A stretch of DNA of 63,465 nt, counting the filler, from Folioceros fuciformis (lineage: Eukaryota), in assembly GCA_049999805.1 (NCBI GenBank). It is 16 parts of 16 records of this genome, joined end to end, with 100 filler letters (N's around TTAATTAATTAA, not from the genome) between each part and the next. Parts side by side here need not be neighbours in the genome. Positions count along the whole stretch, not along the records: positions 20,311 to 21,804 come from JBNGIO010005695.1; 15 more parts are not named here. One strand, 5' to 3'. A program made the translations under genes and the position numbers. Of the stretch, positions 15,902 through 27,845 are shown piece by piece (the first letter of the stretch is position 1; each line of letters starts with the position of its first letter). The notes under the pieces were generated by a model. That model was given only the letters and a program-made list of their open reading frames with translations, had not been told where the DNA came from and ran no database searches.

Positions 15902-17753
15902 AACAAAGCCACCAAGAAGGATCATTTCCCCTTGCCATTCATTGACAACATTCTGGATTTGGTGGCTGGCCGCATGATTTACTCCTTTTTGGATGGCTAT
16001 TCTGGTTACAATCAGCTGTCCCTCAGGGAGAGTGACTGGCCATTGACAGCCTTCACAACTGATTGGGAGACATTCGCCTACAAGAGGAGTGCTTTTGGGC
16101 TGACAGGAGCACCGGGGTCCTTTATGCGCAGCATGTACAAGATCTTCAAGGATTTCCTCCACAAGTTCCTAGAGGTGTTCATAGATGATTTTTGTGTGTC
16201 TGGAGGGGTGGAGCAGCATCTGGAGCACCTAAGGCTGTGCTTGGCCAGATGTTTTGAGACGCAACTTTGTTTGCATTCAGAGAAATGCTATTTTGGCATG
16301 GCTGAAGGGATCTTGCTAGGTCACAGAATTTCAGCAAGGGGCATTGAAGTGGACCCGGACAAGGTGAAGGTGATTGCTGCCTTGAGGGCCCCAGCCACAC
16401 TGAAGGAGCTGCGTGGATTCCTTGGGATAATGGGATACTACCGCCGATTCTTGCCAAATTTTGCTAGACGGGCTGCCCCTTTGACGGGCCTATTGAGGNN
16501 NNNNNNNNNNNNNNNNNNNNNNNNNNNNNNNNNNNNNNNNNNNNNNNNNNNNNNNNNNNNNNNNNNNNNNNNNNNNNNNNNNNNNNNNNNNNNNNNNNAG
16601 AGAAATGCTATTTTGGCATGGCTGAAGGGATCTTGCTAGGTCACAGAATTTCAGCAAGGGGCATTGAAGTGGACCCGGACAAGGTGAAGGTGATTGCTGC
16701 CTTGAGGGCCCCAGCCACACTGAAGGAGCTGCGTGGTTTCCTTGGGATGGTGGAATACTACCGCCGATTCGTGCCAAATTTTGCTAGACGGGCTGCCCCT
16801 TTGACGAGCCTATTGAGGAAGGAGCAATCTTGGGAGTGGACAGCGGCGAGGGAGGCTGCGTTTCAGGACTTGAGGACCACTCTTGTGACAGCACCAACAC
16901 TCAAGGGGCCTGATTGGGACAAGAAATTCCATGTGTACGTGGATGTTTCAGCCTTTGCCATTGGGACAGTCCTTAGCCAACGGGATGAGAAGGGGAGGGA
17001 CTACCCAATCTACTATGCTGGACGTCAACTTACGGAGGCTGAACGCAAGTACACCACAACCGAGAGGGAGGCACTTGGCATGGTCTACTCTTGTCGTAAA
17101 TTCCGCCACTACCTCCTCTCCTATGAGTTTGTCTTCCATGTTGATCATTTTGCTCTCAAGCACCTGGTCAACAAGGCAGACCTATCGGGCCGCATAGCTC
17201 GCTGGATCTTGCTCTTGCAGGAGTTCACATTCACTGTGGAAACAAGGGAAGGGCGTAGGCATGTGAATGCTGATTTTCTATCTAGGCTGAAAACGGGAAA
17301 TGTGGTTCAGGACCAAGAAGATGATTTTCCGGATGAGGCATTTTCAGCAAATCTAGTGGAGAAGGAGAGGGCCAAACCAAATGTTAGGTTGCCAAGAGGT
17401 GAAGGTATAGCACCAAATGAGAAGGGGAGAAGAGGGTCCCGTAAGCCTTCCTACCAAGAGGTGTTTGATTTTTTAGGTACGGGGGAATTTCCAGTTCATC
17501 TCACACGGCAGCAGCAACGGCTGTTCTTGTACTTCACAAGGCTGGTGGTTAAGTACAAGGGCAAGTTGTATCGCACAGGAGCTGATGGCGTGGAGAGGTT
17601 GTGGGTCAAACCTGGCCAAGTGGAGCAAGTTATCAGCTCCCTACATGAGGGAGAGGCTGGAGGCCATTATGCAGCCCATGTGACCTGTAGAAAAATTCTG
17701 GCAGCGGGGTATTGGTGGCCAACAATGCATGCTGATGCTGGAGAATTCATCAA
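15902..17753 (+). mobile_element. Ty3/gypsy pol fragment (RT, RNase H, integrase zinc finger); Athila/Tat-like, no chromodomain visible
   Basis: KDHFPLPFID, FLDGYSGYNQ, FIDD, LRGFLG..YYRRF, VDVSAFAIG, YTTTEREALG, H.GEAGGH..YWWPTM. Two slightly different copies overlap across the 16499-16598 gap. Confidence 0.93.
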
Positions 17754-18443: not shown

Positions 18444-20210
18444 ATAGTTTCACTCCCACTCAGGAGTTAGGTTATTTATAGTCGCATAGTTTTAGCAACC
18501 ATTTAATTCTAATTCTATTGACTGCCCTAAGAAACTTCAACTAAAATTGAAACTTCAAAAGAAACTTTGCCGCCGAAGAAGAGCTATCCAAAAAAATGTT
18601 TGGACTTCACCTTCTTCGTGGCCGGTCCGCTGCCGTGAGAGCCTGATCCGCGCGAGATCGCCAGCTGCTAGTGATGCGCGCACATTTGCGCCGCCGACAC
18701 CCTCTGTTGGGGATGCTTGTTACTTGCAGCTGCTGGATTGCAGCTCGCCGCCACTGCGGCTCTCAGCTGCTAGCTGCCCTGACACTGGATGCGCGCTGCT
18801 GTTGCGCACTCAGATCTCTTCTGCATCTTCGAAATGAGCCTGATGGCTCCTTCTGGATTCAGCTGGATCGGGCAGCCAGATTGGCCTGCCTGACCCGGAG
18901 CGCAGTCCCATTCCATGAGCGTGCTGGCTGTGCTTCGTCTTGCCTAGCGCCTTGGTCAGGACATCTGCTGTCATGAGCCCTGTGGGGCAGTACACTACTT
19001 AGATGAGTCCACTTGCAACCTGCTCCCTGATGAAGTGATGCTGCACGCCGAGATGCTTCGTGCGTGCATGGAATCTAGGATTTTCTGATAATGCTATGGC
19101 GCTTTGATTGTCACACATCAATCTTAGCGGCAGTGGTTGAAGGGAACCAAGATCTGTAAGTGCTCCCACTGCCCAAATGGCCTCTTTACATGCTTCAATT
19201 AGAGATTTGTATTCTGACTCTGTTGATGACAATGCAACAGTTGATTGTCGCTTGCTGCTCCAGGAGATTGCACTCCCTGCCAAAGTGAATACATAGCTTG
19301 AGATGCTGCGGCATGAATCCTGGTCTCCTGCCCAGTCGGCATCGCTGAATGCTTTGAGAGTAAGTGGATCATCTGCATCTCCACTGTAGAGGAGGCCCCA
19401 GTCTTCTGTAGCTTTTATATACCTGAACAGCCTCCTCATTGCTAACCAGTGAGCCATGGCAGGGTTTGACAAAAACTGGGACAGAATTCCCACAGCATAC
19501 GCAAGATCTGGTCTTGTGCCCAGCATCAAATACATCACGCTTCCACTCAGAGAGGCATATGGAAATTCTGCCATCAGTCTTACTTCTTTTGCAGTTAGCT
19601 CTGCCTCTCCTTGTTGTGCACTATATTTTACGTTCTGTTCAAGAGGAGTTGAAACAGGTTTGCAATTTTGCATCTGGAAACGTGCTAGGATCTGCCTGAT
19701 ATATTTAGCCTGGTGCATAAAAATACTCCTTCTTTCTCTGTCTCTTTGAATTTGCATCCCTAGGCAGAATGTTAATGCACCTGAGTCTGTCATCTTGAAT
19801 GCAGACTTGAGCTGCTCCTTCAGCTCTCCAATCATATTCAGGCTATTGGACATAATAAGTATGTCATCAACATATATTGCGAGTGCCAAGAAATTCTTGC
19901 CCTCGCCCTTCTTTACATAAACGTTACCGTCTGCATGAATAGGCAGGTAGTTATGAGAAACTAGGAAGCTATGTATACGTGCAAACCATGCACGAGGACT
20001 TTGCTTAAGTCCATATAAGGTCCTTTTGAGCTTGCATACAGTCTGCTGTTTAGTGTCAGAAGGTAATAATCCAGCAGGTGGCTCCATATAGATCTCTTCA
20101 TTCAGATGTCCGTACAGAAACGCTGTGGTAACATCGAGCTGTTCAAGCTCATAATTGTGGACAGCTGACAGGGCCATAAATAATCTGAGAGTGCTCATCT
20201 TTACTACAGG
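18444..20210 (-). mobile_element. Ty1/copia 3' part: RT-RNase H, 3' UTR, PPT and start of the 3' LTR
   Basis: QLDVTTAFLYG, LYGLKQSPRAW, YVDD, DADWAG, STESEY, ARTKH. PPT TGAGTGGGAG (18462-18453) is followed by TGAAACTAT; the same LTR start is seen at 17960. Confidence 0.92.
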
Positions 20211-20310
20211 NNNNNNNNNNNNNNNNNNNNNNNNNNNNNNNNNNNNNNNNNNNNTTAATTAATTAANNNNNNNNNNNNNNNNNNNNNNNNNNNNNNNNNN
20301 NNNNNNNNNN

Positions 20311-21804
20311 TGCAATGGCCATAACTGTCCGGAAGGTTTGAAATTTAGCTACTGGGGCGAACGTTTCTGTGTAATCAACTCCCTCTTTTTGGGAGAATGG
20401 GTTTAGGGTTTAGGGTTTAAACCCTGTCCCGATATAAAGCTCGCCTCGAGCCACGAGGCGAGCTTTATATCGGGACAGATTACCATGCTCGTCCAGCTTG
20501 GTCTTGAAGACCCACTTGGACCCGACTACCTTTCTGCCCTTTGGTAAGTCACACAAGGTCCAAGTCTTGTTGTCTTCAAGACTCTTCAATTCATCCAGAA
20601 CTGCTGCTCTCCATTCCTTGCCGTTTGGCCCATTAAATGCTTGCTCCAGGGTTAAAGGATCTGACAGATGTACAATGGCAAAGTGCAAGACTTGAGCAAT
20701 CAGTGACACGTGATCACTAACTGCAGAGTCCGCTTCAGCGAGAGGTGGATCAGCTTCCTCCCTGTCACGGATAGCTCGAGCACTACGCGACCCTCGACGA
20801 AAGTCCGGGGCACTGTACAGCACAGGTGGTATAGACGTTCGCGAGCTGCGACGAAGCACTGGGACAGTTGCTATTGGAACAGGTGATGGTGGAACAGGTG
20901 ATGTAGTAACTGGTGCATCTTCCTGCTCACTGTCAGAATGGGAGAAGTCATCATTCACACCGTCATCCTCCGGTGGTGCAGCAGTACCTCCCACATCTTC
21001 TCCGGTCGAAGAGGATCCCAAAGAAGGAAGAGGAACCTCACTGGCATCCAATTGATCAAAGTGGACCACATTGTCCTCCCACCACGCATCTGATGCTGGG
21101 AGATCAACATCGGCTGCATCATGAACTCCCACAGGTTCCTTTATTGAGGCAGTCCTAGCGGCTAAATTAGTAAGCAGCTTTGCCTCGTCAAAAATTACAC
21201 TCTGAGCATAAACAACTTCTTGAGTCTCAGGATTGTATAGCTTGTATGCTTTATACCCGTCAGTGTAGCCAACAAATATCATCTTTTGTGAAGAGTACTA
21301 AAATTTGCGACGTTTCTTCTGATTCAGGTAGGCATAAGCTATGCACCCAAAGGTACAAAGGTGTGCTACCGTTGGCTTCTTGCCTGTAAAGGCTTCAAAT
21401 GGGGTCATGCCGTTGACTGCTGATGTAGGCAACCGATTATGCAGATAGGTGGCACACATAATTGCCTCTGCCCAGAACTGAATAGGTAAGCATACTCTTT
21501 GCAGTGTCCTGTTTGGCTCAGTGACTCCTTTCCACTACCCCATTTTGTTGAGAAGTATACACCACTGTGAACTGCTGTTGGATTCCTGCTTCGACACACC
21601 GACCTGTGAAGCGAATTGATGTGAACTCTCCCCCATTGTCTGTGCGAAGCTTCTTCAGCTTCTTCCCGGTCTGCCGTTCCACAAGAGCTAGATATTCAAG
21701 GAACACACTGTAGGCCTCGGACTTCTTCCAAAGAATGTAGGTATGTGTAAACCTTGAGTAGTCATCGATAAAAGAGATAAAGTACTCAGCTCCACTGATT
21801 GACT
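20311..21804 (-). mobile_element. Ty1/copia integrase to RT N-terminus (a different element from 18444-20210)
   Basis: [62 protein letters not shown]. The RT segment shared with the neighbouring contig differs (PVAKFQTF vs PVVKMSTL). Confidence 0.9.
20399..20478. repeat. Interstitial telomeric repeats (GGGTTTA)x3-AACCCT plus a perfect 25-bp inverted repeat
   Basis: Arms 20424-20448 and 20454-20478 with loop AGCCA; a 45-bp insertion (20399-20443) interrupts the RT motif ARG|FSQ. Confidence 0.93.
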
Positions 21805-21904
21805 NNNNNNNNNNNNNNNNNNNNNNNNNNNNNNNNNNNNNNNNNNNNTTAATTAATTAANNNNNNNNNNNNNNNNNNNNNNNNNNNNNNNNNNNNNNNN
21901 NNNN

Positions 21905-23792: not shown

Positions 23793-26700
23793 TGTTAGAA
23801 ATCCATAGGGTTTTGTAACAACGCATCTAGACTAGCATGCTGTAAGTATATCCCAGGATATATAGGATAATACCATGTTCGGGATATCGTTTGTCCATAC
23901 CGAGGTATTGTCATGTTTTAAAGTTTCTTTGTGTTGTGTACAGGCCCATGGAGACTATGTGTTTGTTGTAAGACCTTGTGCAAGTAGGTGAAGCTTGGCG
24001 TTCGTTTAGGGAAGTCATCTTGTTCGGCCGCAAAGGACGGGAACATGGAGACACGTCTTCTCGAAACTTATGTGGTGGAGAAGTTCGGAGGGAAAAACTT
24101 CACATTATGGAAGCTGAAAATGAAGATGCTTCTTATCAAGGAGGGAGTATGGAAGTTCGCTGACAAGGGTCTCGATGTGGCACCCATAGAGAAAGACCTC
24201 AACAAAGACGGACGGGCCTTGGCAACAATCTTGTTGAGTGTCTCAGATGACGTTCTCTCTCAATTGAGCAAATGCGCAACGTCACAAGAAGTGTGGATCA
24301 CGCTTTGCAATACATACGAAAAGAAAAATATGGTAAGTTCGATGCTGTTGGAACAACAACTTGCGAACTTCACGATGGCCACAGGCGACACGATCCAGCA
24401 ACATGTCAACAAGTTAAAGACCTTAGTGGACCAGATGAAGGCGATGGACATCAAACCGACCGAGGAAAGGATCCTCGTGGTGTTGTTGTGTAGTTTACCG
24501 CCAATCTACGAGCCATTTGTGTCGGCCTTAAGGACAACGGTCGCGATGCAATCAAGCGACAAACCGCCGTCGTTGGATGAGGTGGTCGGATTGCTATTGC
24601 AGGAGGGATTGGAGTTTTCAAACAAGAAAGAGAAGATTGATGACGCCATCCTTTTCACCAAGAAAGACAAAGCAAAGGCAAAGTTCAAGTCTAAGGACGA
24701 GTCTAAGTCTACAGACGAGAAGAAGAAGGATGGTACGAGCCGTACGACGAAAGGATCTTGCTATTATTGCAGGATGCCATGTCATCACGCCAAAGAATGT
24801 AGAACTAGGTTGGCAGACGAGTCGAAGAAGGAGAAATCCTCTCAAGCCAATCAAGTGAGTCAGCAACCTCAACAGGAACAATCATTTGTGGCTAGCGATG
24901 GAGCTACTTCATCGACGAAGGATGAGAATCTTTATCTCGACTCTAGTGCATCTCAGCACTTCAGTTACAACCTTCTAGGGTTCACTGGCTACACTAGACT
25001 CTCAAAGGGCCATACAGTGGCACTCGGTGACAATACCTCACATGATATTGAGGGGAAAGGAGTCTTACACATTCAATTGCAGGGCGGCAACCCCGCACGT
25101 ATAGAGAATGTGCATCATGTACCTCATCTCGCTAAGAATCTTCTTTCTGTTGCGCGCATTGCAGATGCAAGTCATGAAATAGTCTTCAACTCCACAGGCT
25201 GTCGCATTCAACTTGTACAGCCTAAGCCGTCACACGTGGTTGCTCGTGGTGTTCGTGTGGGAAACCTGTACAAACTTTGTGCTTTCATGAGAAAGCAAGC
25301 TTGTACGTTCCTGGCAAGTTCACACAACCACATAGAGTCTGCCAATTTATGGCATCAACGTTTGGGCCACATTGGAGTGGACAAACTCAAGCAGATGACG
25401 ACTCATGACATGGTGACGGGATTAGATTTGAAGGATATTACTGCAACACAATTGTGTCCAGGATGTCAGATGGGGAAGCTAAATCGCACAAAGTTTTCTA
25501 AAGTTGTGACACATTGTGCGCAGAAGGCACTGGAATTAGTCCACACTGACGTGAGCGGGCCCATGCGGAACCCTACACAAGGTGGGAATCGCTACATGCT
25601 CATCTTCGTTGATGATTTTACAAGGAAGACGTGGACTTACCTTTTGAAAGAAAAATCTCAGGTGTTCCAGACATTTAAGGAGTGGAAGAGTATGGTGGAG
25701 ACCGAATGTGGTGAATGCCTTAAGATGCTTCGGAGCGACAATGGAGGAGAATATGTTTCTTCTCAGTTCCAAAGTTTTTGTCAGAAAAATGGCATCAAAC
25801 GACAACTCACGATTCCGCACACCCCGCAGCAAAATGGAGTCGCGGAGCGGAAGATACGGAGCCTCGTGGAAGCATCCAAGTGCATGCTGTTTCACAGCGG
25901 CTTGCAGGTCAACTTTTGGGGAGAGGCTGTCATGACAGCAACCTATGTGTTGAATAGAGTTCCGACAAAAGCCGTAACTAGTATGACACCAGAGGAAGCG
26001 TGGTCCGGTATAAAACCTAATATTCAACATTTGAAGGTTTTCGGTTCCACGGTCTACACTCGTATCCCGAAGGAGAGCCGGACCAAATGGGATGCTAATG
26101 GAACGAAGTGTCTCCTGCTTGGCTATTCAGATGTAGTCAAAGGCTATAGGTTATACAATCTTACTACGAAGAAGGTCTTTTTTAGCAGGGACATTGTTTT
26201 TCAGGAGGCTGTCGAGTTGATGCCTGGAGTGGGCCCTTCAAATGTACCATCTACCGGAGATAATGGTGTGCCTTCTCCAACTAGCTGCCATCTTGACCCA
26301 CCTGATCCGATGTCTGACGACTCTTCTCAACCTGGTGACAAAAGGGGGGAAGGGGGAAACACTCCTAATGTCCCTACAGTTGAAGACGTTGTTGGAGCCT
26401 TACCCCCAGCTGCTGATGAAGATTGTGATATCGAGGGGGGCAGGAGCGAAGCTTCCGATGTTTCTAAAGAAGTAGCAAACTATCTTGTTATAGCACCGCA
26501 ATCGAAATTACGTAGATCCACTAGGTCCGTAAGCCTTCTCAGAGGCTTATAGACTCCATCAATGGATGTGTATAGGATGAGCTAGCATGTTTTACAGATG
26601 TTGAAGAACCTCAAAGCCTGACAGAAGCGTTAGAAGGTCTAAAAGCAAAGGAATGGAGAAAAGCCGTGGACAGTGAGTACAACTCAATTATTAGAAATAA

Positions 26701-27845
26701 AACACGGACAATAACTCCTCTACCTCCTGGAAGGAAAAGCATAGGGTCTAAATGGACCTTCAAGATCAAGCGAAAGGCCGACGGTAGCATAGAACGATAC
26801 AAAGCGAGGTTAGTAGGGAAAGGGTATACACAAGTCCTCGGTGTAGACTATACCGACACTTTCTCTAATGTCGCTAAGATAGCATCTATCCGAGCCCTTC
26901 TCGCTATCGCAGCTGCCTTCAATATGGATATACATCATATGGATGTCCAAACCGCTTTTGTTGAATGGTGATCTCGATGAAGAAATATATATGGAACAAC
27001 CAGAAGGGTTTGAGTTACTTGGTCAAGAAGGCGAAGTTTGTAAGCTGCAGAAGGCTCTCTACGGTCTTAAACAATCTGCCCTTGCTTGGTATCGTAAGCT
27101 CGACAATCACTTACAGTCTAAAGATTTCAAGAGAACTAGCGCTAATTGGAATATATATGTGAAGCAAGTGGGAGAATCCATTGTTATCATTGCTGTATAC
27201 GTGGATGACTTGATCATTGCTAGCAACAATGTGGAACTTTTAAACTCAACTAAAAAGAACCTCAAAGAAAGTTTTGATATGCGAGACATGGGCGAGCTCC
27301 ATTATTGCTTAGGAATAAAGGTGGAAAGACAAAGGATCAACAAGGTAATCTCCTTAATTCAGCAAACATATGTGGAGAACATACTGGAGCGTTTCGGAAT
27401 GCAAGAATGCTATTTTTCATGCAGGGACGAAACACATTGAAGTTAAGCATCATTTCATTAGGGAGAAAGTCTAATCTAAAGAAATAGAATTAGCTTATTG
27501 TCCTATAGAGAACATGCTGGCTGATGTTCTTACAAAAGGTCTAGCCTTAGAAAAGCATATGAAGTTTAGCAAGATGTTAGGGTTTATTGAGTAAGATTTA
27601 TAAATTAGATAGTCAATGTGTTGAGTGGGAGTGTTAGAAATCCATAGGGTTTTGTAACAACACATCTAGACTAGAATGTTGTAAGTATATCCCAGGATAT
27701 ATAGGATAATACCATGTTCATGTTCGGGATATCGTTTATCCATACCGAGGTATTGTCATGTTTTGAAGGCTATATATGTATGTACGTGCTATCAATCTAC
27801 ATGTGCTGAAACATAGATTGATCTTGGTACTCACTATTTTTAATA
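23793..27845 (+). mobile_element. Ty1/copia element with 5-bp TSD GGGTC; truncated 5' LTR, gag-pol 23988-27594, PPT, 3' LTR 27632-27845
   Basis: GGGTC at 23788-23792 and 27846-27850. Both LTRs start TGTTAGAAATCCATAGGG. PPT TTGAGTGGGAG. Gag, CYYC..HHAKEC, LDSSASQH, integrase, RT (YVDD) and RNase H motifs, with frameshifts and deletions. Confidence 0.96.

Follow-up and report, generated by a model that had tools for sequence, protein, structure and literature searches.

Telomeric repeats at former break sites, with matching empty loci, have been described in primates, rodents and the horse (PMC2246262; PMC7215372; PMC8537989). These mammalian insertions occur with or without a change to the flanks (PMC2246262); in the horse, the flanks are unaltered at about 17% of loci, and inverted duplications are present at three complex loci, among which one has head-to-head tracts (PMC7215372). 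Where shelterin is not loaded, end joining probably turns the product of telomerase into an interstitial insertion (bioRxiv 10.1101/2022.10.31.514589). Two terminal base pairs (bp) are enough for human Pol theta to begin stem-loop synthesis, which yields inverted insertions (PMC11292364), and in yeast fold-back inversions of 5–34 bp arise via Pol delta together with nonhomologous or alternative end joining (PMC11724301). In plants, Pol theta is the enzyme for templated filler (PMC9299229; PMC8364232), and a natural snap-back insertion has been proposed at wheat VRT-A2 (PMC8364232); the telo boxes of plants have been given a hypothetical telomerase model (PMC3022908), and break repair has been offered as a possible explanation of short interstitial repeats (PMC8621592). 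Here, we describe a 45-nucleotide (nt) insert at positions 20399–20443 of a 63,465-base stretch of DNA (the window), in which telomere repeats and an inverted copy of adjacent DNA interrupt the reverse transcriptase (RT) gene of a Copia-type retrotransposon.

On balance, this insert is probably a real and fairly recent double-strand-break repair scar, present in one copy or allele of a plant-type Copia element. It would have been generated by fold-back self-priming, by addition of a telomerase-type tract to at least the left 3' end, and by joining through 2-nt microhomologies.

Structure of the insert

Positions count along the window, which consists of small contigs joined end to end, adjoining pieces not necessarily being neighbours in the genome. 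X1 and X2 are public sequencing runs that are described in the next section. The parts of the locus are as follows.

20399–20443, plus strand: the insert, 45 nt, in frame, stop-bearing and absent from sister contigs (contig joint 20398 to 20444 in X1 and X2; script on the window sequence)
20399–20419, plus strand: three perfect GGGTTTA units, 21 nt, with the G-strand running 5' to 3' away from the left flank (word count and script)
20418–20425, minus strand: a single telomere unit whose G-strand is the minus strand, reading TAAACCCT on the plus strand, 8 nt (script; also a small stem in the fold)
20424–20443, plus strand: the 20-nt inverted copy, reverse complement of 20459–20478 (20/20 nt; inverted-repeat search and script)
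20444–20458, no strand assigned: native RT stem-loop, with CCTCG at 20444–20448, a 5-nt loop and CGAGG at 20454–20458, a stretch that the empty-site contigs of X1 and X2 also cover
20459–20478, no strand assigned: native template of the inverted copy, 16–35 nt from the proposed break (script)
20424–20478, no strand assigned: the resulting perfect hairpin, a 25-bp stem with a 5-nt loop (inverted-repeat search and fold)

All 45 bases are explained by three overlapping pieces (21 + 8 + 20 - 2 - 2 = 45), and no base is untemplated. The boundaries are fixed and cannot be shifted, the first and last bases of the insert differing from the adjoining flank bases on both sides when compared by script. 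The C-strand piece at 20418–20425 overlaps the left tract by TA (20418–20419) and the inverted copy by CT (20424–20425). Where the two telomere polarities meet, a script located a 14-nt palindrome (20412–20425), in keeping with the first-pass annotation of this stretch, which had G-rich repeats leading away from both ends and meeting at a palindrome. On either side, the G-strand leads 5' to 3' away from its flank; this orientation fits an enzyme that extends 3' ends because no other orientation is possible for such an enzyme. With at most one mismatch allowed, the 14-mer TTTAGGGTTTAGGG occurs once in the window (20402–20415), where 0.01 occurrences are expected, and no second telomeric tract was found within the window, a set of joined contigs that says little about the true neighbours of this one.

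It is rather unlikely that the same break scar formed without telomerase, by the copying or ligation of telomeric DNA or telomeric-repeat RNA in trans through template switching or filler capture. The 2-nt overlaps at the internal junctions are typical of template switching, and breaks are known to receive templated insertions copied from distant loci (PMC11724301); a polymerase that starts on a telomeric C-strand, however, needs terminal pairing, of which the left flank gives none. The same want of an in-register base in the left flank fits the ligation of a blunt fragment, but a captured duplex would need a ready-made head-to-head junction. The orientation on both sides is the one that telomerase permits, and the window, with the reservation just given, provides no other telomeric tract as a source.

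The right-hand part of the insert is explained by its flank. The native RT stem has a 3' arm that, on the minus strand, terminates exactly at the proposed break, and this 5-bp stem plus the 20-nt inverted copy make up the 25-bp hairpin. Its arms (20424–20448 and 20454–20478) are each 25 nt long, 100% complementary and separated by a 5-nt spacer, just as the first-pass annotation had it in describing a native CCTCG-N5-CGAGG stem extended to a perfect hairpin by a 20-nt inverted copy. N and linker artefacts apart, this is the sole perfect short-spacer inverted repeat of at least 16 nt in the window; the inverted-repeat list held 20 pairs, of which 15 were N-linkers and four others were overlapping palindromes of 15–19 nt. 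Folding of 20380–20500 as single-stranded DNA gave -38.8 kcal/mol, as against -12.8 +/- 2.5 in 200 shuffles, none of which (0/200) folded as well. The combined anatomy of hairpin and telomere repeats is far past chance expectation.

The inverted copy directly adjoins the native stem, which has its 3' arm at the very edge of the proposed break; this is the geometry of fold-back priming, as the copy begins at just the point from which a 3' end would be extended when paired in that stem. Self-priming of the right end after fold-back is thus strongly indicated by the sequence; the first-pass annotation, too, had one end folding back and priming itself.

The conversion of an imperfect into a perfect inverted repeat is the classical product of template switching. 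An error of replication, in which an intra-strand switch at the quasi-palindrome lengthened the native 5-bp stem, after the manner of quasi-palindrome correction or of fork stalling with template switching, and gained telomeric sequence en route with no two-ended break, would match this product and the 2-nt overlaps at the junctions. It would also require an unrelated telomeric template at the fork, and a 21-nt telomeric tract that starts without homology to the flank is left unexplained; we judge such an error highly improbable.

The interrupted gene and its empty site

The insert lies 88 nt from the left end of a 1494-bp contig, whose minus strand encodes part of a Copia-type polyprotein.

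20311–21804, no strand assigned: the insert-bearing contig, 1494 bp, delimited at both ends (20211–20310 and 21805–21904) by a linker of 44 N, TTAATTAATTAA and 44 N (N-run table)
20446–21297, minus strand: Copia pol frame upstream of the insert, with SH3_retrovirus and RVT_2 profile positions 1–41 (PF25597, E 3.4e-11; PF07727, E 8.5e-09; list of open reading frames (ORFs))
20311–20397, minus strand: remainder of the RT past the insert, RVT_2 profile positions 43–71, ending at the contig edge (PF07727, E 8.5e-04, which is under the curated cut-off and covers 29 amino acids only)

Translated separately, the two flanks give RVT_2 positions 1–41 and 43–71, and position 42 is the codon split by the insert; the RT is thus interrupted without loss. 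The first-pass annotation had proposed that removal of 20399–20443 restores the RT with no base lost, and this is correct both for the protein, RVT_2 becoming contiguous, and for the contigs of X1 and X2, which skip exactly these 45 nt. The minus-strand frame passes through the insert in frame, and a stop codon lies inside it. Further frame breaks exist upstream in the same Copia copy, the ORFs switching frame between 21297 and 21518. Apart from putting an extra stop codon into an already defective RT, the insert has no function; it is a neutral scar in a dead transposon copy.

Interruption without loss would also follow if the patch had been born during reverse transcription of this copy. Nascent plus-strand DNA would fold on the native stem, and the RT of the element would extend it, switch to telomeric-repeat or telomerase RNA, and return to the exact next base; leaving and rejoining the template at one point explains the zero base loss. 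The path is simple when read in the sense (minus-strand) direction, from native stem to 20-nt self-copy, telomeric stretch and exact return, and self-priming of retroviral RTs on fold-backs is known (PMC6088434). We nevertheless consider this origin quite unlikely: telomeric templates of both polarities would be needed in a cytoplasmic particle, one broad literature search found no precedent for telomere repeats gained in this way, and the mammalian precedents of this exact combination are chromosomal break scars (PMC7215372).

Five public runs matched the window. X1, X2 and X4 are from one sample (organism A) and X3 is from organism B, while X5 (organism A) had almost no matching words; four runs were compared with the window as Logan contigs, at a likeness of at least 85. 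Record 1 of X1 (841 nt, depth 24.9) matches 20311–20398 with no difference in 88 nt and then 20444–20562 with two differences in 119 nt, the joint falling between the consecutive record positions 722 and 723. Record 8 of X2 (809 nt, depth 32.8) shows 0/88 differences to the left and 4/222 to the right, and passes from 20398 to 20444 at record positions 587/588. The empty site exists: exactly 45 nt are skipped in both X1 and X2, and no base is lost or added. The first-pass annotation had looked to sister copies for an empty site, and the joint from 20398 to 20444 in these two records is that site. Depth in the bin 20411–20460 is 8.48 in X1, compared with 17/50 x 24.9, and 11.2 in X2, compared with 17/50 x 32.8. 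Because this depth is fully supplied by the empty-form contigs, which cover only 20444–20460 (17/50 bases) of the bin, the insert is in none of the X1 or X2 contigs. It is not a property of all family members.

The filled form was recovered from a second library in the same sample. X4 is bisulfite-like: of the 89 changes listed for it, 85 are C>T or G>A. One of its contigs, record 23 (217 nt, depth 4.82), is gapless over 20360–20510 with 20 differences, which is the filled form; the other 66 letters are a loose end behind 20510 that resembles a C>T-converted continuation. Plus-strand cytosines in 20360–20510 comprise 21 in CHH, five in CHG and eight in CG contexts, so that, if CG and CHG sites are methylated, the 20 differences match what conversion at the 21 CHH sites would produce in an accurate copy of the filled form. 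X4 also has the empty form, with a joint from 20390 to 20459 at depth 15.5 and 23 letters between; this is read as the empty form because 20391–20398 and 20444–20458 total 23. Gapless coverage by X4 record 23 answers the concern that the insert might occur in the assembly only.

X3, which has a small word share, contains only diverged relatives (85–95% likeness), whose matches break off where the insert begins and ends. Behind 20398 and ahead of 20462, an identical string of 11 loose letters is found, so that the diverged right flank would directly follow the left one; this is a hint that the X3 relatives may lack the insert.

A chimeric molecule, or a template switch by a polymerase in vitro, could have been frozen in a short unplaced contig, and the contig is in fact just 1494 bp, with the insert close to its end; in addition, the X1 and X2 contigs are of the empty form only, which fully explains the depth of bin 20411–20460. 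Absence from X1 and X2 is weak as evidence, however, because Logan contigs lose minor variants. A chimera would not resume at the exact next base after 45 nt, and the filled form was assembled separately in another library type, X4, at a depth of 4.8 and with a mismatch count that fits bisulfite conversion. We therefore regard an artefact of assembly or library as very unlikely.

The insert-bearing contig differs from the sister contigs at about 1% of positions (7/1062 and 2/119), and the filled and empty forms are either alleles or paralogues. This small divergence, together with hairpin arms and repeats that are perfect, makes the scar look young; the word "fossil," used in the first-pass annotation, is not supported.

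Two further features of this copy were seen in the same runs. Behind 21488, in the integrase region, contigs of X2 and X3 have 14 extra letters that neither the window nor X1 record 4 contains; given this 14-nt length difference, at least two variants of the copy are present in the sample. The X4 contigs suggest CG methylation of the copy at 20360–20576, with methylation also at some CHG sites and little at CHH sites, and the loose end behind 20510 keeps C at a CG site and at one of two CHG sites.

Proposed course of repair

From these structures we infer a break, an order of steps and a set of enzymes. A clean two-ended break would have occurred between 20398 and 20444, with 5' strands resected and both 3' ends intact to the last base. 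At the right end, the minus-strand 3' terminus would fold back via the native 5-bp stem and be extended by 20 nt on its own strand, creating the 20-nt inverted copy and, later, the 25-bp hairpin. At the left end, about three telomere units would be added onto the plus-strand 3' terminus, most simply by telomerase in an aborted chromosome healing. The tails would then be joined by microhomology-primed synthesis, using a 2-nt TA between the two G-strands and a 2-nt CT/AG with the fold-back product. The fold-back and the junctions look as alternative (Pol theta-type) end joining would leave them, Pol theta itself being a putative agent.

The inward-facing telomere unit has two possible origins, which are equally economical. 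In the first, the fold-back product, whose AG is in register, would have received a second, short telomerase extension, and the G-tails would have annealed on TA. In the second, the left G-tail would have primed on a G-strand via TA, for example on itself with a 5-nt loop; 6 nt would have been synthesised before annealing to the right tail through CT/AG. On the right side, the fold-back product does end in AG, 2 nt in register with the inward-facing unit, and the same two bases are equally readable as the joining microhomology. The first-pass annotation had telomerase acting on both 3' ends. This is allowed by the structure, and it is not required by it, because TA-primed copying explains 20418–20425 equally well. 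In a version of events that we consider possible but doubtful, telomerase would have lengthened both 3' ends, one of them after the fold-back self-copy, and the two nascent "telomeres" would have annealed via their TA overlap and been sealed. Were it true, the locus would be a base-resolution record of chromosome healing begun at both ends and overruled by end joining, and short inward-facing pairs of telomere repeats would be a searchable class of scar in plant genomes.

Several points weigh against a break scar formed by fold-back, telomerase-type addition and microhomology joining. The left junction has no flank base in register with the telomere repeat (by script); among mammalian loci, 67–80% of those that are informative have at least one in-register base and 20–33% have none (PMC2246262), and two patient neotelomere breakpoints are without microhomology (bioRxiv 10.1101/2022.10.31.514589). 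The telomere content of the insert, three units plus one inverted, is under the four-unit threshold of the horse and human survey (PMC7215372). TTTAGGG is the plant-type unit, presumed to be the host's own. Involvement of Pol theta is unproven here, as Pol delta does likewise in yeast (PMC11724301), and judged from sequence an origin during reverse transcription is possible. Among the sequence data, the runs were compared as contigs only; the insert 20399–20443 is uncovered in the X1 and X2 contigs, although contigs that lose minor variants are weak evidence of absence. The assignment of X4 record 23 to the filled form comes from counts of differences rather than from letters, in a single contig at depth 4.8, and X1, X2 and X4 are a single sample, possibly the assembly's own source, so their support is not independent.

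Other identities of the insert were tried and rejected. It is not a site of end-to-end chromosome fusion: its flanks are contiguous RVT_2 segments (1–41 and 43–71) of one gene, and they are contiguous in sister contigs. "Head-to-head telomere fusion," the term first applied to it, is accordingly a misnomer, the flanks being two halves of one RT codon rather than two chromosome ends. It is not the footprint of a cut-and-paste excision with hairpin opening and P-nucleotides, in that the centre of symmetry is the loop at 20449–20453, 6–10 nt inside the right flank, no flank bases are duplicated, and the empty site is plain RT sequence. Nor is it a small mobile element, such as a miniature inverted-repeat transposable element or a Helitron fragment, for the hairpin takes one of its arms from the native flank, a target-site duplication is lacking, and no second copy was found in the window.

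Other features of the window

The window contains 43 runs of N: 30 of 44 N, which are paired round the linker core and make up 15 linkers, 10 of 100 N, and three of 10 N. A blastn search of the 1494-bp contig against the window returned no sister copy at the DNA level, the only matches being the contig itself and its own hairpin. In Protein Atlas, the nearest cluster is RVT_2, with few recorded members that are mostly Streptophyta, and the third match is mostly Oomycota, which makes the result taxonomically weak. It is on this nearest cluster, along with the methylation pattern, that the assignment to plants is based. A motif pattern scan found two Copia RT sites in total; the other one (26798–26923, plus strand) is uninterrupted at the position homologous to the insert.

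That second site lies in a region with a long open Copia-type frame at 23988–26552 (plus strand; 854 amino acids), which extends from gag to integrase, the region running on to about 27440. The RT frames that follow 23988–26552 belong to another, unrelated Copia family, and their RT is uninterrupted at the site homologous to the insert. Segments 18999–20210 and 20311–21804 both encode Copia RVT_2 on the minus strand, in colinear order and with overlapping profile positions (57–243 and 1–71, respectively); because of this overlap, and because they share no DNA similarity, they are different elements set side by side. Finally, the 220 nt on each side of the 100-N gap at 16499–16598 (16279–16498 and 16599–16818) are 97.3% identical, and the same Ty3/gypsy-like pol peptide is encoded twice around this gap, either as an unmerged overlap of contig ends or as a tandem duplication.

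Comparison with known systems

Scars of this type are known in mammals and are rarely documented in plants, and the present case is unusually legible. We found no plant case with an empty site in the literature, in a search whose coverage was incomplete and left most subscription journals outside it; within the same incomplete coverage, no paper was found in which interstitial telomeric insertions are connected with templated insertions of the Pol theta type. For plants, telomerase acting on internal 3' ends has until now been put forward as a model (PMC3022908) or taken over as an explanation from elsewhere (PMC8621592). Here, a filled/empty pair at single-base level in a plant-type genome places telomere-repeat addition and fold-back templated synthesis, which are usually studied apart, at the same break. 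It also supplies a search image for genome scans, namely, a short perfect telomere tract that breaks the alignment of a repeat family, with the G-strand pointing away from the flank and perhaps an inverted copy of the flank beside it, and it yields a clear prediction for tert and polq mutants.

With the interstitial telomeric insertions of mammals, the locus shares perfect units at an internal site, an empty site that is short of the insert only, and flanks that, as in some mammalian cases, are unchanged. It differs in that both the heptamer and the genome are plant-type and the site lies inside a retrotransposon; in its small size, as three units plus one would fall below the four-unit threshold of the mammalian surveys; in having no in-register base at the left junction; and in its empty site, which comes from the same sample, as a sister copy or an allele, rather than from an orthologue in another species. 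In the horse, a complex case likewise has inverted duplications of the flank and head-to-head stretches, but a 286-bp inversion and duplications of 38 and 53 bp are involved there (PMC7215372), whereas the 20-nt inverted copy described here can be traced base by base to a 5-bp stem.

The likeness to snap-back theta-mediated end joining lies in an inverted, break-adjacent copy that would be primed by a 3' end via a short intramolecular stem, in the 2-nt microhomologies TA (20418–20419) and CT (20424–20425), and in the lack of untemplated bases. Unlike snap-back theta insertions, part of the filler here is telomere repeat, which is absent from the flanks, and Pol theta is here a candidate enzyme. 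Fusion-type interstitial telomeres such as human 2q13 (PMC6410037; PMC7215372) also have two facing telomeric stretches; in contrast to those head-to-head arrays, the stretches here are of 21 and 8 nt, and the flanks are one split RT codon and not two subtelomeres. Also comparable is the model for telo boxes in plant promoters (PMC3022908), in which free internal 3' ends receive one unit or a few from telomerase, the products being fixed by error-prone repair. That model is hypothetical and concerns single units in 5' regions, with no filled/empty pairs; at this locus, a filled/empty pair is observed.

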